Below are positions 25,895 through 53,483 of a stretch of DNA of 64,000 nucleotides, one piece after another. Each line of letters opens with the position of its first letter. Position 1 is the stretch's first letter. The DNA is from Desulfomonilia bacterium (GTDB lineage Bacteria > Desulfobacterota > Desulfomonilia > UBA1062), in assembly GCA_963664325.2 (NCBI GenBank), contig CAXXDQ010000003.1:960001-1024000 (forward strand), in the 5' to 3' direction. The translations under genes and the position numbers were made by a program. The notes under the pieces were generated by a model that searched no databases, was not told the DNA's origin, and saw only the letters and a program-made list of their open reading frames with translations.

Positions 25895-26032
25895 GGCCTC
25901 GGTCTTTTCGCGCCTTGCTTTGTCGCGCTGCGGGCTGTGACGCTCCGACGTACGTCAATGTACGCCTGCGCGCCTCAACCCTTGCTCTTCGCGCAATCCA
26001 TCGAAAATTCCATCGGCCATAACTAGTTAACT
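25895..26032. repeat. GC-rich self-complementary intergenic element (REP/MITE-like) at the island boundary
   Basis: Palindrome gacgtacgtc (25947-25956), repeated ccttgct, ttttcg...cgaaaa flanks; abrupt switch to AT-rich sequence at about 26020. Confidence 0.35.
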
Positions 26033-31085: not shown

Positions 31086-31214
31086 TCAAAAATTATTGCC
31101 CGGCTGTTTTTGAATGAGTCTCAGGGTTTCCTGATAGATGGTCTTTCTCGGGCAGATGGTGATCAGGGTGATTTCGTTGTCGAAATGTTTGCAGATAATC
31201 CTGAATCTGCCTAC
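31086..31214 (-). pseudogene. C-terminal fragment of a RelE/ParE-type toxin
   Basis: Hand translation VGRFRIICKHFDNEITLITICPRKTIYQETLRLIQKQPGNNF* resembles the RelE tail RVGxxRIIY...IGPRxxIY; in-frame TAA at 31266-31268 upstream and no N-terminal half. Confidence 0.55.
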
Positions 31215-31407
31215 GTCGTCGGGGCTTATCACATATGCGATAGCGGAGCCGTCCTTATTGGACGGTTAAGGGAAGGGGACATGGACAAGACGAAAAAAAC
31301 CTGCCGGTTTTATCAGGAGCCGCCGGCGCTATTGTTTGTTGTGAGATCGATCAGGAATGTGTTAGGAAATTTATAGATTCATATCTCAATATTGTCGGGA
31401 GATTGTT

Positions 31408-31626
31408 ATGCCAAAACATGGAAAAGGGGATGCCGGAAAGCCGTTATACGAATCGCCGAAAGTAATGAATCTGGATGCAAGCGACAAGGCATTGGGCGAC
31501 TGCATTTCTATGGGTTCGGGGGACGAGACCTGTTTTCAAAGCGGCTCGTCGGCACTGTTTGTGTGTGACGGCAACGGATCATCAGCGGGTGCATGCAAAG
31601 GAGCAGGCTCGTCCCCGGAGTCCTAG
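31408..31626 (+). CDS. Putative RiPP precursor peptide (YxxPxV leader, four C-x3-GS repeats)
   Basis: GGGAG RBS; YESPKVMNL leader; Cys at residues 32, 42, 53, 63 in CISMGS, CFQSGS, CDGNGS, CKGAGS. Confidence 0.7.
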   Translation: MPKHGKGDAGKPLYESPKVMNLDASDKALGDCISMGSGDETCFQSGSSALFVCDGNGSSAGACKGAGSSPES

Positions 31627-31655
31627 CGCCGCGGAATATTGGCGGAACTGTCATA

Positions 31656-32252
31656 TTGAAGGAAAAGAGGCGTACTCCGGTCAGGTTTATCCGCTCTTAC
31701 CGAGCCGGATTCCTGAGGTCATCTGAAAAACTTTTTGCGATGGTGCAGTCCATTCCCCGATACCGTTCGTTCATGAGAAGGCATGTGCCGGTCACCGGAA
31801 CCTCTGATTATGATGATCTTCCGTATAAGGCCGTTATCCGTCTCCAAAATGAATATAAGGATATCGGCTGGCTGAAAGGCAATAAGGAAAGGACCTTCAT
31901 TTTCGTCCTGATCGGAAACCGGTATGCGGGCTTTGCAAGACTTGACCGGTATGAGAACAGACCGGAATTCGGGAAAGGCGTGTGGCTTATGGACTGCTGG
32001 ATCAGGCCGGTTTTCCGGGGGCTTGGCGCAGGAGAAAGGCTTATTGATAGGGTAATCGGGCATGCCCGTGAAACTGGTTCCGGCGAGGTCTCCCTTTTCG
32101 TTTTCAGGGACAACCAAAGGGCTATCAGTTTTTATAGAAAACTCGGGTTTAAAGAAATAGAGATACCTGAACTCAAGGATAAAATCCTGAAGGGCTATAA
32201 AAGGCCGTTTAATTTCATGAGAATCAGTCTCGACTCTTTTTTACCGTTATGA
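31656..32252 (+). CDS. GNAT family N-acetyltransferase (start uncertain: 31593, 31656 or 31740)
   Basis: WIRPVFRGLGAGERLI, VFRDNQRAISFYRKLGF. Confidence 0.8.
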   Translation: MKEKRRTPVRFIRSYRAGFLRSSEKLFAMVQSIPRYRSFMRRHVPVTGTSDYDDLPYKAVIRLQNEYKDIGWLKGNKERTFIFVLIGNRYAGFARLDRYENRPEFGKGVWLMDCWIRPVFRGLGAGERLIDRVIGHARETGSGEVSLFVFRDNQRAISFYRKLGFKEIEIPELKDKILKGYKRPFNFMRISLDSFLPL

Positions 32253-37279: not shown

Positions 37280-39946
37280 ATGACAACGAAATATCTGATG
37301 GCAATCGATATTGGAGGAGGCTCCGGACGGTGCCTTCTTCTCGATCCGGAAACCGGAGCTGTAAAGACGGCAAAGCGGAACTGGACGCATCCGGTGGCGC
37401 CGGGCACCAGCGGTCTCGGGTACTCGATGGACACCGGCGATATCCTTGGAAAGCTTGGCGAGGCGTCTTGTGAGGTGCTGGCAAAGGCCGGGGCGGAGCC
37501 GGGCCGGATCGCCGGCATTTCCGTAAGCGGCATGAGGAACACCGTTGTTGTCCTGGACGCCCGGCACGATGTTCTGCTGGCCACGCCCAACCGGGACGCC
37601 AGAGCGCTGGGTGAAGGGTTGATGCTCGGGTTTGAACGGGGAGCGGAGGTTCATGCCATAACCGGCCACTGGCCGACGCCCCTGTTCCTAGGCACACGTC
37701 TCATCTGGATGAAGAACAACGCCCCAGACCTTTTCAAGCGCGCGGCGACCGCCTTGTCCGTCACGGACTGGCTTGCATTCGTTCTTACCGGAAATGCCGC
37801 TTCCGAAAACTCCCAGGCGGGCGAATCGCTCCTCTTTGACATAAAAAAGCGTGAATGGGCATTTGACCTGATCGATTCTCTCGGAATCCCCAGACAGCTT
37901 TTCCCCGCACCTGTGGCCTCGGGCGCGCCTCTCGGCACCCTTACCAGGGAAGCAGCCGGCCTGCTGGGGCTTGTCCCGGGCATACCCGTTGCCGCGGGCG
38001 GGGCAGACACCCAGTGCGGTCTGCTCGGGGCCGGTGCCGTAATGGACTGCGACCTTGCCGTAATAGCGGGTACAACCATGCCTCTGCAGCTGGTGACGGA
38101 TGACCTTGTACTTGATGAATCGGGCAAGCTCTGGAGCGGACTGCATGTTGTCCCGGGGAAATATTTCCTTGAGAGCAACGGTCTTGTCACAGGAGATACG
38201 ATTGACTGGTTCGCTCGCATGCTCTATCCCGATTCGCCGGACCCGTCGCTCAGCCTTTTTGCCGAAGCGGAAAAGTCGCTTCCCGGCGCGGCCGGAATAT
38301 ATTCCACCTTCGGTGCCGCCCTGTTCGACGGAAGGGTGGTGGGCCTTCCCATTGGGAACCTTACCCTTTCCCATATGGTGACGGGCGATCCGTCGCGCGG
38401 CCGCAGGCACATGGTACGCGCCCTTGTCGAAGGGATAGCGTTCTCGGTGCGCGCCAATCTCGAACAGATAACCACGGTCTCGGGCAGAAAGATACCGGCG
38501 GTAAAGCTCGCGGGAGGCATGTCCAGGAGCGGGCTCTTTGCGCAGATCATTTCCGACGTGACCGGATGCGCCGTGGACGTCCCGGCAACAGCAGAGGTCT
38601 CATCCGTGGGCGCGGCCATACTGGCGGGCGTCGGGGCCGGGATATTTGAAAATCCCTCATCCGGCGTGAAGGCCGCAGCCGGGGCCTTCGATGAATGCCG
38701 TCCGGGGAAAGCCGCGGAAAAATATCAGAACCTTTATACCGGCTGGAGGCAGGCCTTCGACAAGCGTGCCGAGACTGATGCGCACATCGGCAATCTCCTT
38801 ACAACCGCCATGCTCGAGGCTTCGCCTGACGCGGGCCGGGCGGCGGACGCATCTTTTTCACCGAAAATATTTATAACCGCATCTCTGGAGAAGAATGCGA
38901 TCGGCGAATTTAAAAATATCGGCGAGGTGTCTTACGCCGGCTGGCGGGAGACCATGAAGCTGTACGACGGAGGAGAGGAGCTTGCCGGAGCGCTTTCCGG
39001 CGTACAGATTCTGATAACGGAAATGGATGTGGTGGACTTTCAGGCCATCCGCGATGCCAAAGACCTCAGGGCGATCGTAACCTGCCGCGGAAATGCCGTG
39101 AACGTTGACATCAAGGCCGCGACCGCCTACGGCATCCCGGTGATGAACACGCCCGGACGTAACGCGGACGCGGTCGCCGACCTGACGGTCGCCTTCATGG
39201 TGATGCTCGCCCGGAAGATGCCCGGGTCTCTGGACTTCCTCAAGCACGGAGACGTGAAATCGGGCGATATGGCCAGGATGGGAGAGGCCTATCTCAAATA
39301 TCAGGGCAGGGAGCTCTGGAGAAAGACTATAGGCCTTGTAGGCATGGGAAGTGTCGGGGCCGGCGTGGCTGCCAGACTGTCCCGTTTCGGTGCCAGGGTT
39401 ATCTTCTGTGATCCGATGGTGACCGAAGGCGCCGGTTCCCTGCTTTCGGCGCAAAAGGTTTGCCTCGAAGAGCTTCTTGCCGAAAGCGATTTCATAAGCA
39501 TTCATGCCCCTGCAATCGAGGCGACCAGAGGGATGATAAACCGCGGGGCTTTCGAGCGGATGAAGACCGGGGCGTATTTTATAAACACCGCAAGGGCGTC
39601 CCTTGTCGATGATGAGGCGCTTCTGTGGGCCCTTACAACAGGGAAGATCGCGGGCGCGGCGCTGGATGTGTTCTCTGCCGAACCCCCCGCATCGGACGAT
39701 GCAATAGTCTCGCACCCTAATGTTCTAGCCACCCCGCACCTGGGAGGAAACACGGAGGAGACCGCTTCTCATCAGGGGGTGATCGCTGTAGACCAGGTCA
39801 GGAAGCTTATGGCCGGGGAGAAACCGGAATACATCCTGAATCCCGGGGTGCTTGAAACCTTCACATGGTCAGGCCCCCGCCCGGAGCCGGACGGGAAGAA
39901 AAAGGACGAGCTTTCTAAAAACAAGCGGCCTACAATCGCGTCATGA
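37280..39946 (+). CDS. FGGY carbohydrate kinase fused to a D-2-hydroxyacid dehydrogenase
   Basis: AIDIGGGSGR, GGADTQCG, EGIAF, AGGMSRS; then NTPGRNADAVAD, GMGSVG, INTARA, LDVF.EP, TPHLGG. Confidence 0.85.
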   Translation: MTTKYLMAIDIGGGSGRCLLLDPETGAVKTAKRNWTHPVAPGTSGLGYSMDTGDILGKLGEASCEVLAKAGAEPGRIAGISVSGMRNTVVVLDARHDVLLATPNRDARALGEGLMLGFERGAEVHAITGHWPTPLFLGTRLIWMKNNAPDLFKRAATALSVTDWLAFVLTGNAASENSQAGESLLFDIKKREWAFDLIDSLGIPRQLFPAPVASGAPLGTLTREAAGLLGLVPGIPVAAGGADTQCGLLGAGAVMDCDLAVIAGTTMPLQLVTDDLVLDESGKLWSGLHVVPGKYFLESNGLVTGDTIDWFARMLYPDSPDPSLSLFAEAEKSLPGAAGIYSTFGAALFDGRVVGLPIGNLTLSHMVTGDPSRGRRHMVRALVEGIAFSVRANLEQITTVSGRKIPAVKLAGGMSRSGLFAQIISDVTGCAVDVPATAEVSSVGAAILAGVGAGIFENPSSGVKAAAGAFDECRPGKAAEKYQNLYTGWRQAFDKRAETDAHIGNLLTTAMLEASPDAGRAADASFSPKIFITASLEKNAIGEFKNIGEVSYAGWRETMKLYDGGEELAGALSGVQILITEMDVVDFQAIRDAKDLRAIVTCRGNAVNVDIKAATAYGIPVMNTPGRNADAVADLTVAFMVMLARKMPGSLDFLKHGDVKSGDMARMGEAYLKYQGRELWRKTIGLVGMGSVGAGVAARLSRFGARVIFCDPMVTEGAGSLLSAQKVCLEELLAESDFISIHAPAIEATRGMINRGAFERMKTGAYFINTARASLVDDEALLWALTTGKIAGAALDVFSAEPPASDDAIVSHPNVLATPHLGGNTEETASHQGVIAVDQVRKLMAGEKPEYILNPGVLETFTWSGPRPEPDGKKKDELSKNKRPTIAS

Positions 39947-39990: not shown

Positions 39991-40674
39991 ATGGGTACAT
40001 ATGACAAATACAAGAATGAAGTGCTTCAGGCGAGCCTCTGGCTGTCGGACAACGGTTATTTCGGTTCTCTGCGAGGCACGGGAGGCAACGTTTCAGTAAG
40101 GATCGACGGCGAGGACCTGATGGCTGTTACCCCGTCTTCGGTGAAATACCACGAGATTGCCACGGAAGACATATGCATATGCAATCTTTCCGGTGCAGTG
40201 GTGGAAGGGGCCCGCGCCCCGTCGGTGGAGGCCGGGATGCATGCCTCTGTCTACCGTGAGCGGCCGGATGCAAATGCAGTCGTGCATACGCATCAGATAT
40301 ACGGCAGCGTATTCGCCCTGCTGAACAAGTCTATCCCTGCGCTTTTCGACGAGGTGGCTTTCACGCTCGGCGAATCGGTCGAGGTCGCTCCCTACGCCAT
40401 CTCCGGCAGCCCCGAACTGGCGGCTAATGTTGCGGGTAAACTCGGCAACAACGCAAATGCGTACATCATCCAGAATCACGGGATAATCACGCTGGGCAAG
40501 AATATGGACAAGGCGCTTCTTGCGGCCGAACTTCTTGAGAAGATCGCCCACATATACTGTCTGGCCCTTTCCACCGGACTGCCGGTAACGATGCTTCCCA
40601 AGGAAATCGGCGATATGGCGAAAGGCATGAGGGAATACGAGGTGGGCGAGGCGAAGAAGAAGGCGGCAAAATAG
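39991..40674 (+). CDS. Class II aldolase/adducin family (fuculose-1-phosphate aldolase-like)
   Basis: GNVSVR, TPS, PSVEAGMH, VHTH, NHG. Confidence 0.9.
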   Translation: MGTYDKYKNEVLQASLWLSDNGYFGSLRGTGGNVSVRIDGEDLMAVTPSSVKYHEIATEDICICNLSGAVVEGARAPSVEAGMHASVYRERPDANAVVHTHQIYGSVFALLNKSIPALFDEVAFTLGESVEVAPYAISGSPELAANVAGKLGNNANAYIIQNHGIITLGKNMDKALLAAELLEKIAHIYCLALSTGLPVTMLPKEIGDMAKGMREYEVGEAKKKAAK

Positions 40675-40966: not shown

Positions 40967-41587
40967 TTACAAGGGACTTCCCTGAAAGCCCTGGATTGCC
41001 AGGAACCTGACTTCATTTTTGGCCGGGTCAAAGAGGGCGATCGTACCGTTTCCCGCCGCGCCTACCGTGATGATGTAGCGCAGATCCTGACCAAGAACCA
41101 CTGTCCCTGTTGCCGGGATTTGCATCTCATGAGGTATTCCCTCTTTTACCTCGACAACGGACGGAGTGTGCGAATGCCCGCGGAATATAAGCCTGTGCTT
41201 TTCCGGATGAAGGCTGTGTATGAACTCGCCGATGGGCCTTCTCGTGGCAGCAGGCCATTCGAAAGGGGATGAGTGCGTGAAGGTGAGTCCGCCGGATCTG
41301 ATCGTATAGGGAAGAGCTTTCATGTAATCTATGGTTTCTTTCTTTAGCCCTTCGGTCAGGCTGTCGGCAATAACAATATAGTCGTTGTTTCCCAGGACCG
41401 CTGAGACGTTGTTTTCTTTAAGTATGCGCACCGCCCCGTCAAGCGCGCCGGGATCGAGCGAATCGCATATGTCTCCCAGGTGGATTATCTTTACAGCGCC
41501 CAGAGACCTGAGCTTTACAATTGCCTTTTCAAGCAGCCTGTTGTTGCTGTGTGTGTCTGCAAGCAATCCTGTAAGGCTTTTGTTCAT
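40967..41587 (-). CDS. Calcineurin-like metallophosphoesterase (YfcE-like)
   Basis: DTH, GDICD, GNND, TH, GHSH motifs; ATGA overlap with the upstream ThiF gene. Confidence 0.85.
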   Translation of the reverse strand: MNKSLTGLLADTHSNNRLLEKAIVKLRSLGAVKIIHLGDICDSLDPGALDGAVRILKENNVSAVLGNNDYIVIADSLTEGLKKETIDYMKALPYTIRSGGLTFTHSSPFEWPAATRRPIGEFIHSLHPEKHRLIFRGHSHTPSVVEVKEGIPHEMQIPATGTVVLGQDLRYIITVGAAGNGTIALFDPAKNEVRFLAIQGFQGSPL

Positions 41588-42513
41588 GACGGCCTGTCTT
41601 GCCTGATCTTAAGGAATTTAAAAACCTTCCTCCAGAACCAGAATGCCTGGCGGTGGAAGTGCTGGCCGCGGCCGTTGCCGAAAAGCTTCCAGCCTAATTC
41701 CCTGTGATATTTTATGAACAGGCTGAAGCGGCTCAGCCTGACACTGCCTTTGCTTATATACCAGCACCGGGGAGCTTTTACTGGTTCCCATCTGCCGGAT
41801 GCAAGTTTTACGGTCTCCAGCGCAGCCAGACTTGCAGCCAGCCATGAAACCGGACAGATGAGCGCAAGCTGTCTGTTGCCAAGGAAATAATCCCAGTACC
41901 AGCCCACGCGCCAGTCGCCGGATGTTATGAAATTATACTGCGCGCAGCGATAGGCCCTTGTATGCATGACGGTCCTCAGGCCTTTATAGCCGAGCTTAGG
42001 TATGCCGAAGACATCCTCGATGGAAGGTGTTGATTCATCCATGACGCTCACCCAGGCCATGGCCCCTGAAGGCATGCAGAGGACGGCGGGCTTGCCATGC
42101 TTTTTCGCGGCGCGGAAAACAAGGATGCTGTAGGACAGGTCATCGACGGCAGGGATGATGATGTCGGCGGATTGAACCAGGGTCTCGATCCCGGCTTCAT
42201 CAGGGAGGTGCTCCAGGCCTGTTATGCTTATGCCGGGATTGATCGCCCTGAGCGAATCGCGGATCACGCTGATTTTGTTCTTGCCGATAGTGTCCGTACT
42301 GCAAAAAGGCTGGCGGTTTGCATCCTGGCTGGCATAGGTGTCGGCCCCGGCAATCGTGATGTTTTCAAAACCGCTTCTTGCCAGCACGGCCGCGATTGTT
42401 TCGCCGGCGCCGCTGTCGCCCACAATGAGTATCCTGGAATTACGGACTTTTTCCTGTTCGGCCTCCGTGAGGACACCGTAGTTGCGCTTGAACAGTTCTT
42501 TATAATCAGACAT
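41584..42513 (-). CDS. ThiF/E1-like protein, paralogue 2 (degenerate ATP-binding motifs)
   Basis: FKRNYG..EQEK, GDSGAG in place of GxGGxG, SQDANRQ in place of SNxNRQ, ALICP; start at 42513 overlaps the upstream stop. Confidence 0.8.
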   Translation of the reverse strand: MSDYKELFKRNYGVLTEAEQEKVRNSRILIVGDSGAGETIAAVLARSGFENITIAGADTYASQDANRQPFCSTDTIGKNKISVIRDSLRAINPGISITGLEHLPDEAGIETLVQSADIIIPAVDDLSYSILVFRAAKKHGKPAVLCMPSGAMAWVSVMDESTPSIEDVFGIPKLGYKGLRTVMHTRAYRCAQYNFITSGDWRVGWYWDYFLGNRQLALICPVSWLAASLAALETVKLASGRWEPVKAPRCWYISKGSVRLSRFSLFIKYHRELGWKLFGNGRGQHFHRQAFWFWRKVFKFLKIRQDRPS

Positions 42514-43456
42514 TTCTTTTTCTTTCGATAAAGCCGTAAAGCTTCCTGAAGGCCGCCCACCATATCTTCTGTCCCAGTTCAAGGGCAGGCGCAAAGGGCG
42601 TCTGGAACAGTCTGTACATCAGCTTTCTCTGCCACACCAGGAGCGAGGTGATGCTCAGGCCGTTTACCCTCTGAACTTTAATGCGGTTGTGCGTTATTGA
42701 GTAATACCTGGGCGAGGAGACGGCTTCCCATTTGCCGGATATGGTCTTGACGATTTCCATGGCGCCTATTGACGAGCAGATCCAGACAATTGGACAGAGC
42801 TGTGTCGGCGGGGCCCCGTCGAACACAAAGGATTTGTAATAGTCGATTTTCCAGCTTGCCATCGGCACATAGAAGTATGTCCCGAACTTGTATCTGGGGG
42901 TAATAAACATCTCATGCAGCTCTTCATAAGTCTTGAGCCAGGGCACCCCCTCTATATCCTCTACCGGCGGACTGTCCGGCATAATCATGCTGACATGCGC
43001 CCAGGTGCCTGACGGTACGACGAACAGGGCCGGTTTCTCAAGTCTTTGCGCATCCCTGAAGACGATCAGGCTGAATGCGAAATCATCGGCTGCAGGGAAA
43101 ACGACATCGACTTTTTTTATAAGCTCTTCGATCTCCCGGTGATTCATTCTTGTTGCATTAACCTCGACTTTTGCATCGGGGTTTATCTTCCTGATATATT
43201 CTGCAACAGCTTCCGCCTTGTTTATGCCCAGGGTATTTTCAAAGCAGCATATCTGGCGGTTCATGTTGGAGGGCTCATATTTGTCCGGCTCAATAAGGAT
43301 GAAATTTTCAACGCCCGAGCGGGCAAGGATTATTGCCACAGTCCCGCCTATGCCGCCGCATCCGATAATAAGGATTTTGGCCGCCTTCAGCAGCGACTGC
43401 TCCCTTTCGGTAAATATACCGTAATTCCTTTCAAACAGTTTCCGGTAATTATCCAC
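42506..43456 (-). CDS. ThiF/E1-like adenylyltransferase, paralogue 1
   Basis: FERNYG..EQSLL, IGCGGIGG, D..EPSNMNRQ, GINKAE, AADD, QLCP; GGGAGG RBS. Confidence 0.9.
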   Translation of the reverse strand: MDNYRKLFERNYGIFTEREQSLLKAAKILIIGCGGIGGTVAIILARSGVENFILIEPDKYEPSNMNRQICCFENTLGINKAEAVAEYIRKINPDAKVEVNATRMNHREIEELIKKVDVVFPAADDFAFSLIVFRDAQRLEKPALFVVPSGTWAHVSMIMPDSPPVEDIEGVPWLKTYEELHEMFITPRYKFGTYFYVPMASWKIDYYKSFVFDGAPPTQLCPIVWICSSIGAMEIVKTISGKWEAVSSPRYYSITHNRIKVQRVNGLSITSLLVWQRKLMYRLFQTPFAPALELGQKIWWAAFRKLYGFIERKRNV

Positions 43457-43550
43457 GGCCTCCTCCCTGAAGACGTGAGATTATACTAACATAAAAAAAT
43501 ATCAACACAGAAGGTGGAATTGAATCGGTGTTTCATGTAATATCCGGGAA

Positions 43551-44570
43551 ATGGAAGCACCTGACATGCAAGACGCGAACAATGATAAACCGGCAATCAA
43601 AAAGCAGATACTCATAATGATTGCGGCTTTCTGCGCCCTTTGCCTTTACTTTGTCCTGAGCTGGATGATCGATATCAGGTATGCCTCGAAAGAGGAGGAA
43701 AGGTATTCAAAAGAGCTGGTATCGAAAGCCCAGACAGCGGGCGATATTCTCTCTGCCAGGGTTAAAAATCTGGCCGATGCCCTTGACATTTTCCGAAGGA
43801 TCTACCTGACCGAGTTTGCCGGGGAAAAAAGAGGCATCGGCTCGGTGATCGACCTTTTCGAGGAAGAGCTCAATTCGTTTCCGGAGCTGGTCAGCCTCTC
43901 GTACATGAATGCGACATCAGAGCTTGTTTATGCCAGAGGCATAGAAGGCGATGAAGGCGAGGCTGCCGTCAACGCCGCCATTGACTGGTCAAAGGAATAC
44001 TGGTCCAGGCTAGGCCCGGATGATGAAAAGCCTTTTTACACACCGGTAAAAAAAGCGGACAGGTATTACTTGCAGGGCGTTATATTTCCTGTAACGCTGG
44101 ATGAAAAGATCGCAGGCGGCCTCATCGCGGTGACAGATATGGGAACAGCAATGTCAAAGACCTTTGAACTCGCAGATATCCAGGAAGGCACAACCATCTT
44201 CCTGATCGATACGACAGGTGAGGTAATCTCTTCTTCGGGCAACGGTGAATCAATGAAATCACCCGACGCTTCCTTTATCACAAAAGATTTCATGAAAAAG
44301 GTCCTGTTGTCTCAAAACGGGTGTCTGACTACGGTGGTTAAACCAAAGGGAACGGGAAAGACAAGGCTGTCAGGCCAGCTTATTACGGCATGGCAGCAGG
44401 TAAGGCTCGGCTCGAAGGATGCCGTTGTCGTTATGACTTCACCCGCTGAAAACGCTGTCATGATATTTAAAAAAGCCAGGTTTACCCACATGATACTTGA
44501 GTTTGTTTTTGCAGTCCTTGTGGCCATGATTCTGGCCGTGTTTTTATTGAAGAACCGCAGTTCCTGCTGA
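43551..44570 (+). CDS. Two-TM membrane protein with a Cache-like extracytoplasmic domain and no output domain
   Basis: N- and C-terminal TMs; PVTLDEKIAGGLIA and IFLIDTTGEVI Cache-like strands. Confidence 0.55.
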   Translation: MEAPDMQDANNDKPAIKKQILIMIAAFCALCLYFVLSWMIDIRYASKEEERYSKELVSKAQTAGDILSARVKNLADALDIFRRIYLTEFAGEKRGIGSVIDLFEEELNSFPELVSLSYMNATSELVYARGIEGDEGEAAVNAAIDWSKEYWSRLGPDDEKPFYTPVKKADRYYLQGVIFPVTLDEKIAGGLIAVTDMGTAMSKTFELADIQEGTTIFLIDTTGEVISSSGNGESMKSPDASFITKDFMKKVLLSQNGCLTTVVKPKGTGKTRLSGQLITAWQQVRLGSKDAVVVMTSPAENAVMIFKKARFTHMILEFVFAVLVAMILAVFLLKNRSSC

Positions 44571-46470: not shown

Positions 46471-46974
46471 ATGTCAGCAGTTAAAGAAGCAAATCTCAGC
46501 GGCCTCGAGGAGTTCACATCCGAGCAGATAGCAAAAATGGATGCTATCATTAAAAGCTACAAGGGCAAACCGGGCGCACTTATCCCGGTGCTCGAACAGG
46601 TTCAGGAAGAGCTCGGATTTCTCCCGATGGCGGTTCAGCAAAGGGTGGCAAACGGTCTTAATCTCCCGGTTGCCAATGTCTACGGCGTCGTAACATTCTA
46701 TTCATTCTTCACAATGGTCCCGAGGGGCAAGCACAATATCCGCGTATGCCTTGGGACGGCTTGTTATGTCAGAGGTTCGCAGAGGCTTCTGGAAACCATT
46801 ACAAACATTCTCGGCATAGAGCCGGGCGGCTGCACGGAGGATAGACAGTTTTCACTTGAAACGGTCCGCTGCCTCGGTGCCTGCGGTCTGGCGCCTGTCG
46901 TTGTCGTCGATAACGACACGCATGGCCAGATGAAGGCTGCAAAGCTGGAAAGCTTGCTGGCACAGTACAAATAG
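46471..46974 (+). CDS. NuoE/HndA/HydC-like [2Fe-2S] subunit
   Basis: GVVTFYSFF, CLGTAC, CLGAC. Confidence 0.9.
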   Translation: MSAVKEANLSGLEEFTSEQIAKMDAIIKSYKGKPGALIPVLEQVQEELGFLPMAVQQRVANGLNLPVANVYGVVTFYSFFTMVPRGKHNIRVCLGTACYVRGSQRLLETITNILGIEPGGCTEDRQFSLETVRCLGACGLAPVVVVDNDTHGQMKAAKLESLLAQYK

Positions 46975-46986
46975 GAGGCTTACGTT

Positions 46987-47373
46987 ATGGCAAAACTGAC
47001 AATAGAAGATCTCAAGAAGATAAAGGAAAAGGTTGAAAAGGAAGACCAGTTCCGTTCTGGCCAGAAGAGGGTGAAAATCAACGTACACATGGGGACATGC
47101 GGGATTGCATCCGGCGCCAAGGAAGTCCTTGACACGGTCATGGAAGAGCTGAACGAGAACAAGTCAAACGATGTCCTTGTCACGACATCCGGCTGCATAG
47201 GAATCTGCAGCAGGGAGCCACTGGTCACGATAGAAGAGCAGGGCAAGGAAGCAACCGTTTATGAATATGTAAACAAGAACAAGATGAGACAGATATTCAA
47301 GCGTCATGTCATGGGCGGCGAGATACAGTCCGATTTCGTAATGGCCCGCGGCAAAGAGCAGGATGGGAGGTAG
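46987..47373 (+). CDS. Thioredoxin-like [2Fe-2S] ferredoxin subunit (HndB/HydD-like)
   Basis: MGTCGIASGA, GCIGICSREP. Confidence 0.85.
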   Translation: MAKLTIEDLKKIKEKVEKEDQFRSGQKRVKINVHMGTCGIASGAKEVLDTVMEELNENKSNDVLVTTSGCIGICSREPLVTIEEQGKEATVYEYVNKNKMRQIFKRHVMGGEIQSDFVMARGKEQDGR

Positions 47374-47376
47374 GTC

Positions 47377-50300
47377 ATGGCAGCCAGAGTTTTCAGGGCA
47401 CACATACTTGTCTGCGGCGGAACAGGCTGCAGGGCGACGGGCAGCGAGGCGATCCTGAGCGATGTCGTAAAGGAGCTTGCTAAAAAAGGGCTGACGAATG
47501 AAGTGAGCGTGGTGGAAACCGGATGCAACGGTTTCTGCGCAGCAGGCCCGATCATGGTCATATATCCGGAAGGCACGTTCTATCAGTACGTCAAGGCCGC
47601 TGATGTTCCGGAGATAATTGAAGAGCATATCATCAAGGGACGCCCGGTTCAAAGGCTCATGTACAAAGAGCCTTTAACCGAGAAGCCAATCCCGCACATG
47701 CAGGAGATACCGTTCTTCGGCAAGCAGATGCTGATCGCACTTAAGAACAGGGGCCTTATCGATGCTGAAAAGATCGATGAATATATAGCCCGGGACGGGT
47801 ACATGGCGGCGGCGAAAGCGCTTAGCGAAATGGGTCCTGATGAGGTAATCGAGCAGGTCAAGAAATCAGGTCTTCGTGGCCGTGGGGGCGGTGGATTCCC
47901 TACAGGTATGAAGTGGTCTTTTGCCCGCAAGAGCGCCGGCACTGAGAAGTACATCCTCTGCAATGCGGATGAAGGCGACCCGGGCGCATTCATGGACCGT
48001 TCGGTACTTGAGGCAGACCCGCACGCGGTCCTCGAAGGCATGATAATCGCCGGCTTCTCAATCGGCGCAAGCCAGGGTTACATATACTGCCGCGCTGAAT
48101 ATCCGCTGGCCATCAAGAGACTGAACCTTGCAATCGAACAGGCCCGCGAATACGGTCTGCTGGGTAAAAATATCCTCGGCACCAACTACAGCCTTGATAT
48201 CGAAGTCTACCAGGGCGCGGGCGCATTCGTATGCGGCGAAGAGACCGCTTTGATGGCATCCATAGAAGGCCGCCGCGGCATGCCCAGGCCGAGGCCTCCG
48301 TTCCCCGCAACGTCGGGACTCTGGAACAAGCCCTCGGTGCTCAACAACGTCGAGACGTTTGCAAACATCCCGCAGATTATTTTAAAGGGCGGAGACTGGT
48401 ATGCATCCATCGGTACGCAGGGTTCAAAGGGTACGAAGGTTTTCGCTCTGACCGGTGCGGTCAATAATGTCGGTCTGGTCGAGGTCCCCATGGGGACGCC
48501 GATCGGCGATATCATATTCGACATTGGCGGCGGAATCCCTAACGGCAAGAACTTCAAGGCGGCACAGCTGGGCGGCCCGTCCGGCGGATGTATTCCGGCC
48601 CAGGCCTTGAACACGCCTACGGACTATGAAGAGATCGTAAAGCTCGGTGCAATCATGGGTTCGGGCGGTCTTATCGTCATGGACGAGGACACCTGCATGG
48701 TCGATACCGCACGCTTCTTCATGGAATTCTGCCAGGAAGAGTCCTGCGGAAAATGCACCCCGTGCCGTGAAGGCACCAAGCGCATGCTCGAAATACTGGA
48801 AAAGATATGCAAGGGCAAAGGGGAGGATGGCGATATAGAACTTCTCGAAGACCTTGCCTATGTCATCAAGGACTCGGCCCTTTGCGGACTCGGCCAGACA
48901 GCCCCGAACCCGGTTCTTTCGACGCTGAAATACTTCCGGGAAGAATACGAAGCCCATATCTATGACAAGAAGTGTCCGGCGGCCGTATGCTCGGCGCTCT
49001 TTAAATCTCCGTGCCAGCATGCATGCCCGATCGAAATGGATATTCCCGCCTACATAGCGCTGATAAGGGCGGGCAGGCTCGATGACGGCTACAAGCTCAT
49101 GAAGCAGACCAACCCGTTCCCCGGCGTATGCGGCCGCGTATGCCCGCAGTTCTGCGCTTCGAAATGCCGCAGAGGCCAGCTCGACGAGCCGATGGCCATC
49201 GCATGGCTCAAGAGATACATCGCAGACAACGCCAAGCGCCCTGAAGTAAAACCGGCTGAAGTAACCAGAAAACAGAAAATAGCCATAATCGGCGCAGGCC
49301 CGGCCGGCCTTACGGCAGCGCAGGACCTTGCAAAGCGCGGCTACAAGGTAACGGTGTTCGAAAGCCTTCCAATGGCTGGCGGCATGATGAGATACGCCAT
49401 TCCGGAATACAGGATGCCTCGAAACATAATCGACATTGAGGTCGCAGACATCGAAGCGCTCGGCGTAGAGATCAGGACAAACTGCAAGATCGGCAAGGAC
49501 ATCAGCTTCGACAAGTTGAAGAAGGATTATGACATAGTCCTTCTTGCAATCGGCGCCCAGAAGAGCTGGACGCTCGACATCGAAGGCGAGGATTCAAAGG
49601 GCGTTTACGGCGCGGTCGAATTCCTCCGCGAAGTCAACCTCGGCAAAAAGATCAAGGTCGGCACCAAGGTGGCGGTCATAGGCGGCGGGAACTCAGCAAT
49701 CGACGCAGCCAGGACAGCCCTCAGGCTCGGCGCAAAAGATGTGACGATCCTTTACCGCCGCGAAAGAAAAGACATGCCTGCATGGGAAAACGAGATAGTT
49801 GCGGCTGAGCATGAAGGTGTGAGGATCGAGTACCTGGTTGCTCCGACCAAGGTCATAAGCAAGGCCGGAAAGGTAACAGGCATCGAATGTGAGCGCATGA
49901 AGCTGGCCGAATTCGACAAGTCGGGCAGACGCCGTCCCAAGGCGATAGAAGGCAGCAGGTACGTGATATCGGTTGACACAATCATACCCGCAATTTCTCA
50001 GGCCCTTGATGCCGACTGGATCAATGCGGATTCAGGTGTCACTGTTACAAGGGGCGGCACTGTTGCAGTTGCTGGCCGTACCAAGACGGCAACTACGGCT
50101 GACGGCATATTCGTGGCCGGCGATGCGGCAAAAGGCCCGGCAACCGTCGTGGAGGCAATAGCGATGGGACATCAGTCTGCAGCTGAGATAGACAGCTATA
50201 TCAGGAAGCTTAACGGTGAACCCGAATACAAGATCCCTGAGAGCGAGAAAATAGACATCCCGTTCGAGGTTGATGAGGAGGTCGTCGAGACCCCGAAGGC

Positions 50301-50424
50301 CGAGATGCCGGAAATAACCCTGAAAGCCAGGGCAGGCAACTTCAATGAGGTTGAAACCGGCTACAACAAGAAGCTTGCATACAAGGAGGCTTGCCGCTGC
50401 CTGAGGTGCGATGCCGAGCTTTAA
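47377..50424 (+). CDS. NuoF/HydB-like FMN/NADH subunit fused to a GltD/NfnB-like FAD/NADPH domain
   Basis: GRGGGGFP, NADEGDPGAFMDR, CGEET, CGKCTPCREG; then PCQHACP, CGRVCP, GAGPAGL, GGGNSA, YRR, AGD, RCLRC. Confidence 0.9.
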   Translation: MAARVFRAHILVCGGTGCRATGSEAILSDVVKELAKKGLTNEVSVVETGCNGFCAAGPIMVIYPEGTFYQYVKAADVPEIIEEHIIKGRPVQRLMYKEPLTEKPIPHMQEIPFFGKQMLIALKNRGLIDAEKIDEYIARDGYMAAAKALSEMGPDEVIEQVKKSGLRGRGGGGFPTGMKWSFARKSAGTEKYILCNADEGDPGAFMDRSVLEADPHAVLEGMIIAGFSIGASQGYIYCRAEYPLAIKRLNLAIEQAREYGLLGKNILGTNYSLDIEVYQGAGAFVCGEETALMASIEGRRGMPRPRPPFPATSGLWNKPSVLNNVETFANIPQIILKGGDWYASIGTQGSKGTKVFALTGAVNNVGLVEVPMGTPIGDIIFDIGGGIPNGKNFKAAQLGGPSGGCIPAQALNTPTDYEEIVKLGAIMGSGGLIVMDEDTCMVDTARFFMEFCQEESCGKCTPCREGTKRMLEILEKICKGKGEDGDIELLEDLAYVIKDSALCGLGQTAPNPVLSTLKYFREEYEAHIYDKKCPAAVCSALFKSPCQHACPIEMDIPAYIALIRAGRLDDGYKLMKQTNPFPGVCGRVCPQFCASKCRRGQLDEPMAIAWLKRYIADNAKRPEVKPAEVTRKQKIAIIGAGPAGLTAAQDLAKRGYKVTVFESLPMAGGMMRYAIPEYRMPRNIIDIEVADIEALGVEIRTNCKIGKDISFDKLKKDYDIVLLAIGAQKSWTLDIEGEDSKGVYGAVEFLREVNLGKKIKVGTKVAVIGGGNSAIDAARTALRLGAKDVTILYRRERKDMPAWENEIVAAEHEGVRIEYLVAPTKVISKAGKVTGIECERMKLAEFDKSGRRRPKAIEGSRYVISVDTIIPAISQALDADWINADSGVTVTRGGTVAVAGRTKTATTADGIFVAGDAAKGPATVVEAIAMGHQSAAEIDSYIRKLNGEPEYKIPESEKIDIPFEVDEEVVETPKAEMPEITLKARAGNFNEVETGYNKKLAYKEACRCLRCDAEL

Positions 50425-50575: not shown

Positions 50576-50798
50576 ACATCTCGGAATATTTATATATTAT
50601 GCAGATTCCAGCATAATAATATTTCAATAAGGGAACATTATGAAAATCAAACGTACATCTTTCAGGGAATCATGGTTACTCATGATCTGTTTTTGAAAAC
50701 ACAGGGAATGAGCCTCTTGCCTTGAGCAGCGGTCAGGCCGTTTGGTATTTTGTTCCAATATTCCAATACAGCAACCGGGCATTCACGGGAGGAATTTA

Positions 50799-53483
50799 AT
50801 GAAGCTCAGCATTAATGGAAGGGAAGTTGAATTTGAGGCCGGTAAGACGGTCTATGAGGTGGCCAGGGCCAACGGTATATACATCCCCGTCCTATGCCAC
50901 CATGAACTTGTGAAACCTGTCGGCGCCTGCAGAGTGTGCGTGGTTGAGATCATGGGCGCCAGAAACCTTGTCGCATCGTGCGCCATGCCTGCGGAAGACA
51001 ACATGAAGATATTTACCGGCACGGACAGGGTGCTCAAGGCGAGGAAGCTCGTTGTTGAACTGCTCATGACCCAGGGCCAGCACAACTGCATTACATGCGA
51101 ATCGAGCGGGGATTGCGTGTTGCAGGACCTGGCATATTCGCTGGGGGTTGAGAGTCCGAGATTTACGGAGCCTGAAAAGCTGCCCGCAATCGAACAGGGC
51201 AACGAGATGATAGTTCGTGACATGAAAAAATGCGTGCTGTGCGGCCTGTGCGTGCGCGCATGCAACGAGGTTCAGGTAAACCAGGTGCTTGATTATACGG
51301 GCCGGGGCCCGAGCGCAAAGGTAGGACCTCCGTTCAAGAGGCTTTACGAAGAATCAGACTGCGTATTCTGCGGGGAATGTGTCAGGGTCTGCCCGGTCGG
51401 CGCTCTCTATGAAAAGCAGGGCAGGTTCAGGGGCAGGGGAAAGGAACTGGAAAAAGTAAGGACCACCTGTTCATACTGCGGTGTCGGCTGTCAGATGGAC
51501 GTGTGCGTCAATGACGGCCAGATTGCCAAGGTCACAACTGCAAGAGAAGGGATGCCTTTGCCGAACAACGGCAGTCTCTGTATAAAAGGGCGCTTCGGGT
51601 ATGACTATGTCGGGCATCCCGACAGGCTTAAAACCCCGCTTATCAAGGTTGACGGCGAATTTAAAGAGGCCTCGTGGGACGAGGCGATTGGCTTTATTGC
51701 AGAGAAGCTTCTCAGGGTAAAGCAAACAGCAGGTGCAGAGGCCGTTGCGGGGTTTTCCTCCGCACGCTGCACGAATGAAGAGAACTATCTGTTTCAGAAG
51801 TTTTTCCGTGCAGTGATCGGCAGCAACAATGTCGACCATTGCGCCCGGCTCTGACACAGCTCGACCGTGGCCGGTCTGGCCACTGCCTTCGGTTCTGGGG
51901 CAATGACAAATTCGATAGCAGACCTTGAAGAGAGCAGATGCTTCCTGATCACCGGATCAAATACGACCGAAAACCACCCGGTCATCTCGACGTTTATAAA
52001 AAGGGCAGTAATGCAAAGGGGCGCAAAGCTCATACTGGCCGACCCGCGTAATATCGAGCTTTCGAAATTTGCCACCATACATCTCAGGCAGAAACCGGGC
52101 AGCGACATCGCCTGGATCAACGGCATGATCAACATCATCATTAAAGAAGGGCTCTTAGATGAAAAGTTTATCGAAGAAAGGACCGAGAACTTCGATGCCC
52201 TGAAAGAGGCTGTTTCAAAATATACGCCCGAGTATGTTGAAGAAATATCGGGCATTCCGAAAGACGAGCTTATCACGGCTGCAAGAATCTATGCAAAATC
52301 CGGCGCCTCGGCCATAGTTTATGCAATGGGCATTACCCAGCACATTACAGGAACCGATGCCGTCAAATCCCTGGCCAACCTGGCGATGGTCACCGGCAAT
52401 ATCGGCAGGCCCGGAACCGGCGTGAATCCCCTGCGCGGGCAGAACAATGTCCAGGGGGCCTGCGACATGGGCTGCCTTCCGGGAAATTTTCCGGCCTACA
52501 TGCAGGTCGCGAATGACGAACACAGGGCCAAATTCGAGGCGGCGTGGGGCTGCAAGCTTAACCCGAAACCGGGGCTTACTATCCCCAAGATAATCGAAGG
52601 GGCCGACAAGGGGACGATCAAGGCGCTTATCATAATGGGTGAAAACCCGATGATGTCCGATCCTGATATCGCACATGTGGAGCATGCGCTTGGAAAGCTT
52701 GACCTGCTGGTTTGTATGGACATCTTTTTAAATGAAACGACGGCACTGGCCGATGTCGTACTTCCGGGCGCCTCATGGCCTGAAAAGGACGGAACTTTCA
52801 CGAACACGGAAAGAAGGGTTCAGCGTGTCAGGAAGGCTGTAAATGCCCCCGGACTGGCCCTGCCGGACTGGAAGGCCCTTGAGATGCTGGCCAACAGGAT
52901 GGGTGCATCATGGGGCTATGCCGATGCAAATGCCATAATGGAGGAAATAAGGGGCGTGACCCCGTCATACAAGGGCATAAGCTATCAGAGGCTTGAAACA
53001 GAGGGTTTGCAGTGGCCGTGCCTGAACGACGAACACCCCGGCACAAAAATCCTCCATTCTGCGGCTTTCACGAGAGGCAAGGGGCTTTTCACGGTGAACC
53101 ATTATCTGCCGCCCGCCGAAGTCACCGACGACAAGTATCCGTTCATCCTGACCACTGGGCGGATCCTTCAGCAGTATCATACGGCGACCATGACCAGGCG
53201 CTCGAAGGGCCTCGTGTCAAGAACGCCGGATGCCTTTGTCGAAATAAACCCCTCAGATGCAAAAGCGCTTGGAATCTCAGCAGGCGACAAGATAGAAATT
53301 TCATCCCGCCGGGGGAAGATTGTTGTAAATGCGGACGTAACTGACAGTGTCGCCAGGGGGGTTATATTCGTACCGTTCCACTATCACGAGGCGGCTGTCA
53401 ACCGGCTCACGATTGCAGCCATTGACCCTGTCGCCAACATACCGGAATATAAGGTCTGTGCGGTAAATCTGAAAAAGGCCTGA
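50799..53483 (+). CDS. fdhF: Selenocysteine-containing formate dehydrogenase alpha subunit with an N-terminal NuoG-like Fe-S region (one gene, UGA at 51852-51854)
   Basis: ORFs 50742-51854 and 51867-53483 are in frame: DHCARL-TGA-HSSTVAGLA; CSYCGVGC, LCIKG, LRGQNNVQG, EKDGTFTNTERR; GGAGG RBS. Confidence 0.93.
51852..51883 (+). other. UGA(Sec) codon plus bacterial SECIS hairpin
   Basis: gtggcc-ggtct-ggccac stem-loop starting 12 nt after UGA; GGUCU apical sequence as in the E. coli fdhF SECIS. Confidence 0.85.

Follow-up and report, generated by a model that had tools for sequence, protein, structure and literature searches.

A conserved pair of ThiF-like paralogues, one with an altered nucleotide site, as a probable active/inactive E1-like enzyme in a Desulfomonilia bacterium and its relatives

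We analysed a 64,000-nucleotide stretch of DNA from a Desulfomonilia bacterium (GenBank assembly GCA_963664325.2, contig CAXXDQ010000003.1, forward-strand positions 960,001 to 1,024,000; this whole stretch is called the window below), in which two adjacent genes encode ThiF/E1-like paralogues, ThiF1 and ThiF2. The pair is conserved beyond the genus of the window, has been joined into a single chain on several occasions and is under purifying selection in both of its members. We consider it very probable that ThiF1 and ThiF2 act as a heteromer, an active/inactive E1-like pair, because they stand in tandem order, are translationally coupled, have co-diverged and have been fused at least three times independently, and because the seemingly dead site of ThiF2 is itself conserved. 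To the whole of our reading, in which this heterodimer would act on a small or lipid-like carboxylic acid, we give a probability of about 0.5. A first-pass annotation of the same DNA had likewise proposed a heterodimeric adenylating enzyme, and that proposal is strengthened by the tandem order, the fusions, the co-divergence and the fixed altered site of an intact/degenerate pair that selection has maintained.

A conserved tandem of ThiF paralogues

The pair and the gene behind it are arranged as follows:

43456..42506, minus strand: ThiF1, 316 aa, GTG start; predicted intact ThiF/E1-like adenylation subunit
42513..41584, minus strand: ThiF2, 309 aa, ATG start within the 3' end of ThiF1; degenerate nucleotide site
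41587..40967, minus strand: metallophosphoesterase (MPE), 206 aa, YfcE/Metallophos_2 type

The open reading frames (ORFs) and the sequence itself agree with the three overlapping genes described at first pass: an 8-nt overlap at 42506-42513, made by ATGTCTGA, joins ThiF1 to ThiF2, and a 4-nt overlap at 41584-41587, made by ATGA, joins ThiF2 to the MPE. The ribosome-binding site of ThiF1, GGGAGGAGG, lies seven bases upstream of the GTG start, and a 336-aa reading of ThiF2 from a TTG codon is an upstream extension of the 309-aa form that begins at ATG.

Both proteins match the Pfam ThiF family across the whole core (137.2 bits for ThiF1 and 113.3 bits for ThiF2, cut-off 28.1) and they align with each other from end to end with 102 of 315 positions identical (32%, E 2e-68), as the first-pass annotation had described. 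The ATP-site residues of ThiF1 are GCGGIGG, E56/D58, N64-x-NRQ, K80 and D124-D125, and in 28 aligned ThiF1 relatives R10, G32/G34/G35/G37, D58, N64, N66-R67-Q68, K80 and D124-D125 are invariant. In ThiF2, by contrast, the phosphate loop GCGGIGG is GDSGAGE and the segment SNMNRQ corresponds to QDANRQ, with Gly56 replacing the acidic residue and Asp64 replacing Asn. These changes are fixed in the 26-row alignment of ThiF2, where Gly-Asp occupies positions 32-33 in 25 rows and Glu38, Gly56 and Asp64 occur in all 26; R10, N66-R67-Q68, K80 and D125 are retained. From what is established about Rossmann folds and E1 enzymes we argue that ThiF2 would no longer bind ATP, because two acidic residues flank its phosphate loop and its ribose-binding acid is gone.

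The cysteines and the tails of the two proteins also repay attention. As first noted, neither sequence has a CxxC pair and both carry a Cys in QLCP/LICP. Cys146, Cys190 and Cys250 are invariant and specific to ThiF2, and Cys71 and Cys220, which are common to ThiF1, are invariant too. Amphipathic tails rich in Trp, Arg and Lys had been claimed, and the C-terminal tails are indeed basic and aromatic: that of ThiF1 (residues about 263-316) has an isoelectric point of 11.4 and 9 aromatic residues in 54, and that of ThiF2 has an isoelectric point of 11.7, 12 aromatic residues in 47, a helical hydrophobic moment of up to 0.66 and a conserved motif, HRKLGW..FG...H.

How widely is the pair conserved? 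A profile of the 28 aligned ThiF1 relatives led to 80 loci from contigs representing one genome per species, whose ORFs were taken as the longest non-overlapping ones, a crude way of calling genes. A ThiF1-type gene is followed directly by a ThiF2-type gene in 27 of these loci, with distances ranging from a 14-nt overlap to a gap of +37 nt when start codons are chosen by hand, and the paired loci belong to metagenome-assembled genomes labelled Syntrophales, Syntrophaceae, Smithella and similar. The remaining loci hold a single ThiF gene or end at a contig edge (L002, L017, L030 and others); the labels of the unpaired loci are Chloroflexota, other Thermodesulfobacteriota, Spirochaetota, one Hadarchaeales archaeon and others. 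A single ORF of 637-674 aa, with a linker of 10-45 aa, spans both genes in four loci (L014, L015, L029 and L031), and in L020 they are also joined in a broken frame; the fused loci occupy at least three separate places on the tree. Moreover, a database search for longer proteins returned 18 clusters of 611-689 aa, each of them a double ThiF.

On the tree ThiF2 forms one clade of 26 rows (SH-aLRT 100) outside a 55-row clade of ThiF1 and its single relatives, and the internal branching of ThiF2 mirrors that of ThiF1. In these 26 genomes, pairwise identities of ThiF1 are correlated with those of ThiF2 (r = 0.91), the means being 63.0% for ThiF1 and 57.6% for ThiF2. The ThiF2 profile was also run against a library that holds 1.84 billion representative proteins: 46 of these reached E 1e-30, the two that are themselves of the ThiF2 kind scored 808 and 549 bits, and the next score, 296 bits, belonged to ThiF1-type proteins. 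Within the order just 8 genomes out of 43 possess a ThiF2 orthologue, and the pair is an accessory, patchily distributed function rather than the MoeB of the family.

Could ThiF2 be merely a decaying duplicate, or could the two proteins be separate, ordinary homodimers? We regard this as very improbable. Seen in a single genome, a protein that has lost its Gly-rich loop and its acidic ribose-binding residue does look like a decaying one, but the altered residues are themselves conserved, 60 of 307 ThiF2 columns are invariant across the 26 genomes (73 of 311 for ThiF1), and the ThiF2 orthologues fall into the single clade described above. Nor did we find the relaxed selection that a decaying second copy should display: among four genomes of the window's genus dN/dS is 0.10-0.13 for ThiF2 and about 0.06 for ThiF1. 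The repeated fusions likewise argue against decay, as does the observation that in the 80 loci we saw no ThiF2-type gene without a ThiF1-type gene ahead of it. As far as sequence data reach, then, selection, the fixed altered site and the fusions refute the idea of a decaying copy.

The third gene has a different history. The MPE matches Metallophos_2 (PF12850) with 49.8 bits, above the cut-off of 27, and the motifs DxH, GD, GNxD and GHxH, which by eye we take to be those of the metal site, are kept; it thus fits the YfcE/MJ0936-type metallophosphoesterases by Pfam score and metal-binding motifs, but misses TIGR00040 (24.1 bits, cut-off 56.25). The first-pass annotation had seen in it a dedicated phosphoesterase, so that three proteins would form one system in which the heterodimer makes a product and the MPE erases or processes it. 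Several observations are in keeping with that idea, namely the ATGA coupling of ThiF2 and the MPE, the same three-gene order in all four genomes of the window's genus, and purifying selection on the MPE within the genus (dN/dS 0.11-0.13). However, the MPE follows the pair in just 1 of the 25 paired loci with at least 700 bp of downstream sequence (L001), so the cassette of three genes belongs to the genus, and the unit conserved beyond it is ThiF1-ThiF2 alone. Furthermore, 19 of 24 family-level relatives, 16 of them outside the genus, have an MPE orthologue (39-54% identical), with or without the pair: six genomes with an orthologue have no ThiF gene (G008, G009, G016, G017, G022 and G023), and in three others (G006, G011 and G024) the MPE and the pair are on different contigs. 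The MPE is a genus-specific neighbour whose distribution is independent of the pair, which largely refutes the dedicated role and leaves a three-protein system improbable.

Family placement and the likely substrate

If ThiF1 and ThiF2 form a heterodimer, what might it act on? Curated families give a partial answer. No NCBIfam cut-off was reached by either protein, and the top model for both was PRK08223 (114.7 bits for ThiF1, 102.2 bits for ThiF2), the alignment covering residues 3-262 of ThiF1 and residues 2-171 only of ThiF2. PRK14851 scored 85.6 bits against a cut-off of 1170 and the Rv1355c family model 44.9 against 476. On the equivalog models of MoeB and ThiF, ThiF1 scored 76.3 bits with TIGR02355 (cut-off 376.55), 97.1 with TIGR02356 (275.25) and 109.5 with PRK08644 (159), and ThiF2 scored below ThiF1 on such models; moreover the MoeB, ThiF, UbaA and TcdA models span only about the first 110-160 residues (about 15-160 for MoeB/ThiF). 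The PDB offered no close solved relative, and MccB, MoeB, ThiF and TcdA matched the N-terminal half.

Profile-profile comparison (hhalign) gave the same ranking. With six PRK08223/PRK14851-type domains ThiF1 scored 339.5 and ThiF2 302.4, versus 207.6 and 161.0, respectively, with ten MoeB/ThiF-type proteins from relatives, and here the alignment with the PRK08223/PRK14851-type domains took in columns 2-299 of ThiF2. An F-x-R-N-x-G motif is common to these domains and to ThiF1 and ThiF2, and the full-length matches of the ThiF2 profile outside its own family are ThiF domains of the PRK08223/PRK14851 type. The fusion partners in this group include an FeeM N-acyl amino acid synthase (P0167, P0181), a PlsC-type acyltransferase (P0201), methyltransferases (P0191, P0228), a glycosyltransferase (P0255), a nitroreductase/FDO (P0268) and a WbuX-like amidotransferase (P0184). 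It is through these domain fusions and the name of the "Rv1355c family" model that we tie the NCBIfam models to TyzB (318 aa, formerly annotated MoeW), OxzB and TrzS (Rv1355c), which the portions of PMC10404671 and PMC12856293 available describe as ThiF-like cyclases that convert N-acyl amino acids to oxazolone lipids at the expense of ATP and whose genes stand beside those for an acyltransferase and a flavin oxidase. Judged by these comparisons, ThiF1 and ThiF2 are placed beside the ThiF-like cyclases and are less like MoeB/ThiF.

We also sought a ubiquitin-like partner. Extending the earlier remark that no ThiS/MoaD gene is nearby, we obtained no match to PF02597 (ThiS/MoaD) in the organism's own 4.31-Mb genome, which is 95.6% complete, and none in the three further genomes that represent the window's genus; a profile built from the ThiS/MoaD proteins of relatives found nothing credible in the organism's genome either. 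That profile is capable of detection, since it recovers the MoaD beside a MoeB-type gene that had been left out of it (E 3e-13), and other ThiF genes of the relatives do adjoin a ThiS/MoaD gene (G006, G010, G014, G015, G020, G021 and G024). Over 9,261 ORFs of the 80 loci it gave one weak match (E 0.033), in L016: a 105-aa ORF (L016:7930-8247, minus strand) that separates ThiF2 from two genes for tungsten aldehyde oxidoreductases (AORs). It shares the strand of the AOR genes and may go with them as a gene of the WorX type. Among 27 ORFs of the window at 12 to 60 kb, Pfam scanning revealed no E2 or JAB, no search having been aimed at either. ThiF1 and ThiF2 bear the ThiF domain only; PADLOC returned just partial matches to the E1 Rossmann region of Cap2 and none for the MPE, the Cache-like protein or the membrane protein, the last two of which are described below. 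Because no ubiquitin-like partner was found, the substrate is most likely not a ubiquitin-like protein, and we put a non-protein carboxylate at an even chance or a shade under.

Might the pair instead work on tRNA? TcdA, the E1-like enzyme that converts t6A37 to ct6A, adenylates and then cyclises an N-acylated amino acid moiety, has no CxxC pairs and needs no ubiquitin-like protein, and in an enzyme of this kind the basic tails would bind tRNA, not a membrane. The tails are certainly very basic, one source names some database copies tRNA A37 threonylcarbamoyladenosine dehydratase, solved TcdA chains match the family profile with 83 bits, and there is no other TcdA candidate in the genome. We nevertheless think a TcdA-like role quite improbable. 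The TcdA model PRK15116 gives only 58.4 bits with ThiF1 and 39.2 with ThiF2 against a cut-off of 304, over residues 2-114 and 20-130, respectively; PRK08223-type profiles outscore it; and the recurrent linkage of the family to a membrane protein and to genes for AOR and alcohol dehydrogenase is out of keeping with work on tRNA.

That membrane protein (cluster c2), which has several hydrophobic segments, adjoins the ThiF gene in 25-28 of the 80 loci, in three of which it was counted through an antisense ORF covering it, and it is present in 14 of the 27 paired loci. All 25 copies contain a PWW motif and most have 3-5 hydrophobic segments; no Pfam family matched it and the ESM Atlas gave unnamed clusters only. 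The 104 neighbour ORFs of 31 unpaired relatives held no family that recurred more than five times. A lipid-like substrate would fit, because the tails are basic and amphipathic and because this membrane protein is a neighbour, and membrane association of the pair is plausible on the same features.

We therefore picture ThiF1 and ThiF2 as what are probably the two halves of one enzyme. ThiF1 would bind Mg-ATP and adenylate a carboxylate. The nucleotide pocket of ThiF2 would be closed by Asp33, Glu38, Gly56 and Asp64, and ThiF2 would serve as an obligatory partner. E1-like dimers donate an N-terminal arginine across the interface, as in the structures of MoeB and of E1s. In ThiF2 the Arg of the F-x-R-N-x-G motif, Arg10, never varies and would fit this part, and ThiF2 probably lends it in trans to the site of ThiF1. 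Beyond this arginine, the contribution of ThiF2 would lie in a conserved surface, in its invariant cysteines (four or five) and in its basic, amphipathic tail. The substrate would more likely be a small or lipid-like carboxylic acid, treated as by TyzB, OxzB and TrzS, than a ubiquitin-like protein, and the phosphoesterase downstream would be a housekeeping-type gene that has come to lie behind the pair in this genus.

The tungsten-enzyme neighbourhood and the rest of the window

A difficulty for this picture lies in the company that the genes keep. Of the 80 loci, 27 have an AOR-family gene within 6 kb (29 proteins in all); AORs occur in all 41 genomes searched, with 2-14 matches per genome of 2.1-6.9 Mb, and simple arithmetic from these genome counts puts the chance of an AOR in a random 13-kb stretch at about 5% at most. 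Other conserved neighbours are Fe-S subunits, NuoE/NuoF-like proteins and Fe-alcohol dehydrogenases. In 11 loci labelled Chloroflexota the order is AOR, ThiF and membrane protein within a long operon that also encodes NuoE/NuoF-like and Fe-S subunits.

Could the pair, then, have a part in supplying the tungsten/molybdenum pyranopterin cofactor or in maturing AOR-family enzymes? Such a part might be that of an unusual MoeB-like activator of a sulphur carrier that is hidden or unrelated to MoaD, or that of an assembly factor for AOR complexes. The frequency of AOR genes near the ThiF genes and the gene order in the Chloroflexota operon speak for such a role, and a MOSC domain is encoded by 2 of the 104 neighbours of unpaired relatives. 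The best argument in its favour is this neighbourhood taken together with the organism's own genome, in which MoaC, MoeA, a MoaE beside an AOR and six AORs are encoded and the pair is the sole ThiF-family match. Published interpretations run in the same direction, as far as the sections available go: a ThiS-like WorX and thiF genes beside AOR/WOR genes have been read as cofactor genes (PMC13328260, PMC1779556), and AOR-linked ThiF/MoaD genes have been taken as such more generally (PMC1779556, PMC13328260, PMC6365974).

A number of observations nonetheless argue against a cofactor role. A ThiS/MoaD gene was found neither in the genome nor beside the pair. Eight of the 24 family-level relatives, two of them rated 100% complete, have 2-11 AOR matches and no real ThiF-family match; six of these eight have MoaE, and a ThiS match was found in none of the eight. 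Because such ThiF-less relatives possess AORs, an E1-like enzyme appears to be unnecessary for AORs in this family. Conversely, G011 has the pair together with a canonical MoeB (213.5 bits), and the small share of genomes in the order that carry the pair also speaks against a cofactor function. Both proteins are nearer to the cyclase branch than to MoeB/ThiF, and they have no Zn CxxC site and no rhodanese domain. On balance we hold a function in cofactor synthesis or AOR maturation to be unlikely, though not so unlikely as to be set aside.

What else weighs against a heterodimer acting on a small or lipid-like acid? The neighbours point to tungsten/molybdenum enzymes, with an AOR-family gene within 6 kb in 14 of the 27 paired loci and, in the window, a selenocysteine formate dehydrogenase cluster 3 kb from the pair, and the status of the pair as the only ThiF-family genes in a genome with MoaC, MoeA, MoaE and six AORs favours the cofactor role instead. 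The link to the cyclases is itself a distant one, the PRK08223 cut-off of 266 bits being far above the scores of ThiF1 and ThiF2. We found no FeeM (PF21926) or Acetyltransf_5 (PF13444) gene in the organism's own genome, no acyltransferase or nitroreductase cluster among the conserved neighbours of the 80 loci and, by a single-protein search and a 25-member profile, no copy of the membrane protein in the organism's own genome. As to the dimer, the Arg10 of ThiF1 is invariant in paired genomes also, and it would be unneeded if it faced a dead site; in ThiF2 the retention of R67, K80 and D125 means that ligand binding may still be possible.

The heterodimer and the tungsten enzymes could conceivably be reconciled. 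We tentatively suggest, while thinking it unlikely to hold in every part, that the pair is a heterodimer that works without a ubiquitin-like protein, arose independently of the eukaryotic and Bil E1s, carries out an ATP-dependent step for tungsten AOR systems and has a metal site formed by the ThiF2 cysteines. That step might activate an acid, whether substrate or product, at the membrane, or it might help to make or repair the tungsten cofactor independently of MoaD. Most tungsten enzymes of the AOR family are still without known physiological roles according to the accessible text of PMC13328260.

Some further observations on AOR genes and cofactor genes were made along the way. Many genomes of this family have 2-14 AOR-family genes and a MoaE but no detectable ThiF/MoeB-family or ThiS/MoaD gene (G005, G008, G009, G013, G017, G022 and others), and two of them are rated 100% complete; they may matter for our understanding of cofactor biosynthesis, and molybdopterin sulphuration in them could possibly involve a very divergent MoaD or a different route. 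Outside the window, at G000:C2:47175-51117, an AOR gene stands ahead of genes for a polyferredoxin with four clusters and for a DUF763 protein (414 bits), after which comes a convergent gene for a 125-aa MoaE; a 70-aa Cys-rich ORF lies directly upstream of the AOR. In eight of the Chloroflexota-labelled loci (L054, L060, L064, L066, L067, L068, L071 and L078) a small lipoprotein-like protein (about 98 aa) that carries the haem motif CxxCH is encoded between the membrane protein, here with four transmembrane segments, and the Fe-S/NuoEF-like genes of the AOR-ThiF operon, and a histidine kinase and a LuxR-type response regulator are encoded upstream. The arrangement in these loci resembles an AOR electron-transfer complex that spans the membrane. 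We considered aorD and aorE of the Aromatoleum AOR operon as relatives of the ThiF genes and rejected them, both being MoaD-like and not ThiF-like in the portion of PMC6365974 available.

Two further features adjoin the start of ThiF1:

43457..43550, no strand: divergent intergenic region, 94 bp, contains the ThiF1 ribosome-binding site
43551..44570, plus strand: divergent neighbour with two hydrophobic (transmembrane) segments, a weak dCache-like periplasmic middle and no cytoplasmic output domain

The divergent neighbour matches dCache_1 with 20.1 bits, under the cut-off of 45, and it adjoins the pair within the genus only (64-66% identity in L001/L002/G003). Between 40.6 and 43.7 kb no sigma-70-like promoter was called against 2.4 expected and no terminator was convincing, and no Rfam family matched between 38 and 54 kb of the window. 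On the other side of the operon, the plus strand at 37280-39946 encodes an 888-aa fusion of an FGGY carbohydrate kinase and a D-2-hydroxyacid dehydrogenase, 3' of which a class II aldolase gene (39991-40674) is convergent with the ThiF operon.

Further along the plus strand, the catalytic subunit of the formate dehydrogenase (50742-53483) is split into ORFs 50742-51854 and 51867-53483 by an in-frame TGA, which when read as selenocysteine gives CARLUHSST. Ahead of it are genes for a NuoE-like protein (46471-46974), a small 2Fe-2S protein (46987-47373) and a 1015-aa NuoF-GltD fusion (47377-50424), and the enzyme is probably NAD(P)-linked and possibly bifurcating. Finally, G+C is low at 26001-32000 (0.36-0.42 versus about 0.5-0.58 in the flanks), a stretch that contains a single 1581-aa ORF (26077-30822, minus strand).

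Comparison with known systems

Why should such a pair matter? If our reading is correct, it would be a second active/inactive E1 pair in bacteria, independent of BilD and in a branch whose known members act on lipids. It would also offer a natural case of the fixation of a pseudo-enzyme, in which duplication was accompanied by loss of the ATP site, the gain of invariant cysteines and repeated fusion. Lastly, the 46 library representatives outline an uncharacterised clade with ties to the tungsten AOR clusters of syntrophic and other anaerobes. The suggestion at first pass that this is an undescribed system must be tempered by its place beside the characterised cyclase branch and by the precedent of BilD. 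Literature searches brought up no description of a two-gene ThiF pair; the supplementary ThiF-superfamily network of PMC12856293 may include the clade.

The cyclases TyzB, OxzB and TrzS provide the best-scoring curated family, aligned across the whole ThiF1 core, and in the portions of PMC10404671 and PMC12856293 available they resemble the pair in several ways: they have the F-x-R-N-x-G motif and no CxxC pairs, their stand-alone forms are about 300-320 aa long (TyzB 318 aa, PMC10404671), and they act on a non-protein carboxylate without a ubiquitin-like protein. However, they are single ThiF proteins or ThiF-oxidase fusions, whereas here there are two paralogues, one of which has a putatively dead site. 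Their partners are an N-acyl amino acid synthase and a flavin oxidase, for which we found no such cluster near the pair and no synthase family match in the genome, and the known pathway, as far as these sources describe it, uses O2, whereas the present organisms seem to be anaerobic and to have many AOR and Fe-S enzymes.

MoeB and ThiF belong to the same superfamily, have the same ATP-site residues as ThiF1 and, like the pair, are often encoded beside AOR-family genes. They differ in having zinc CxxC pairs and a ThiS/MoaD partner, neither of which was found for the pair, and in being homodimers rather than the heteromer proposed here, and their match is limited to the N-terminal half. TcdA resembles the pair in being E1-like with neither CxxC nor a ubiquitin-like partner, but the neighbourhood of the pair is not suggestive of work on tRNA.

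The closest likeness in architecture is to the SUMO and NEDD8 E1s and to BilD, each of which combines, as the pair seems to, one intact and one degenerate adenylation domain in two genes or a fused chain. The pair differs from them in that it is without the catalytic-Cys insertion domain and the ubiquitin-fold domain, and no E2, ubiquitin-like protein or JAB peptidase was seen with it. Because the duplication that produced the pair falls within the cyclase-related branch, its origin is, on the tree and profile evidence, independent of that of the eukaryotic and BilD E1s. According to the excerpted text of PMC10557695, the bacterial E1-like enzymes known before BilD were all homodimers, BilD is an active/inactive E1 pseudo-dimer, and its domain order is the reverse of that in the fusions described here, in which the intact domain precedes the degenerate one. 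Consequently, an active/inactive E1 architecture is already known in bacteria (PMC10557695), and what would be new in ThiF1-ThiF2 is its occurrence apart from ubiquitin-like machinery and with the reversed order of domains.

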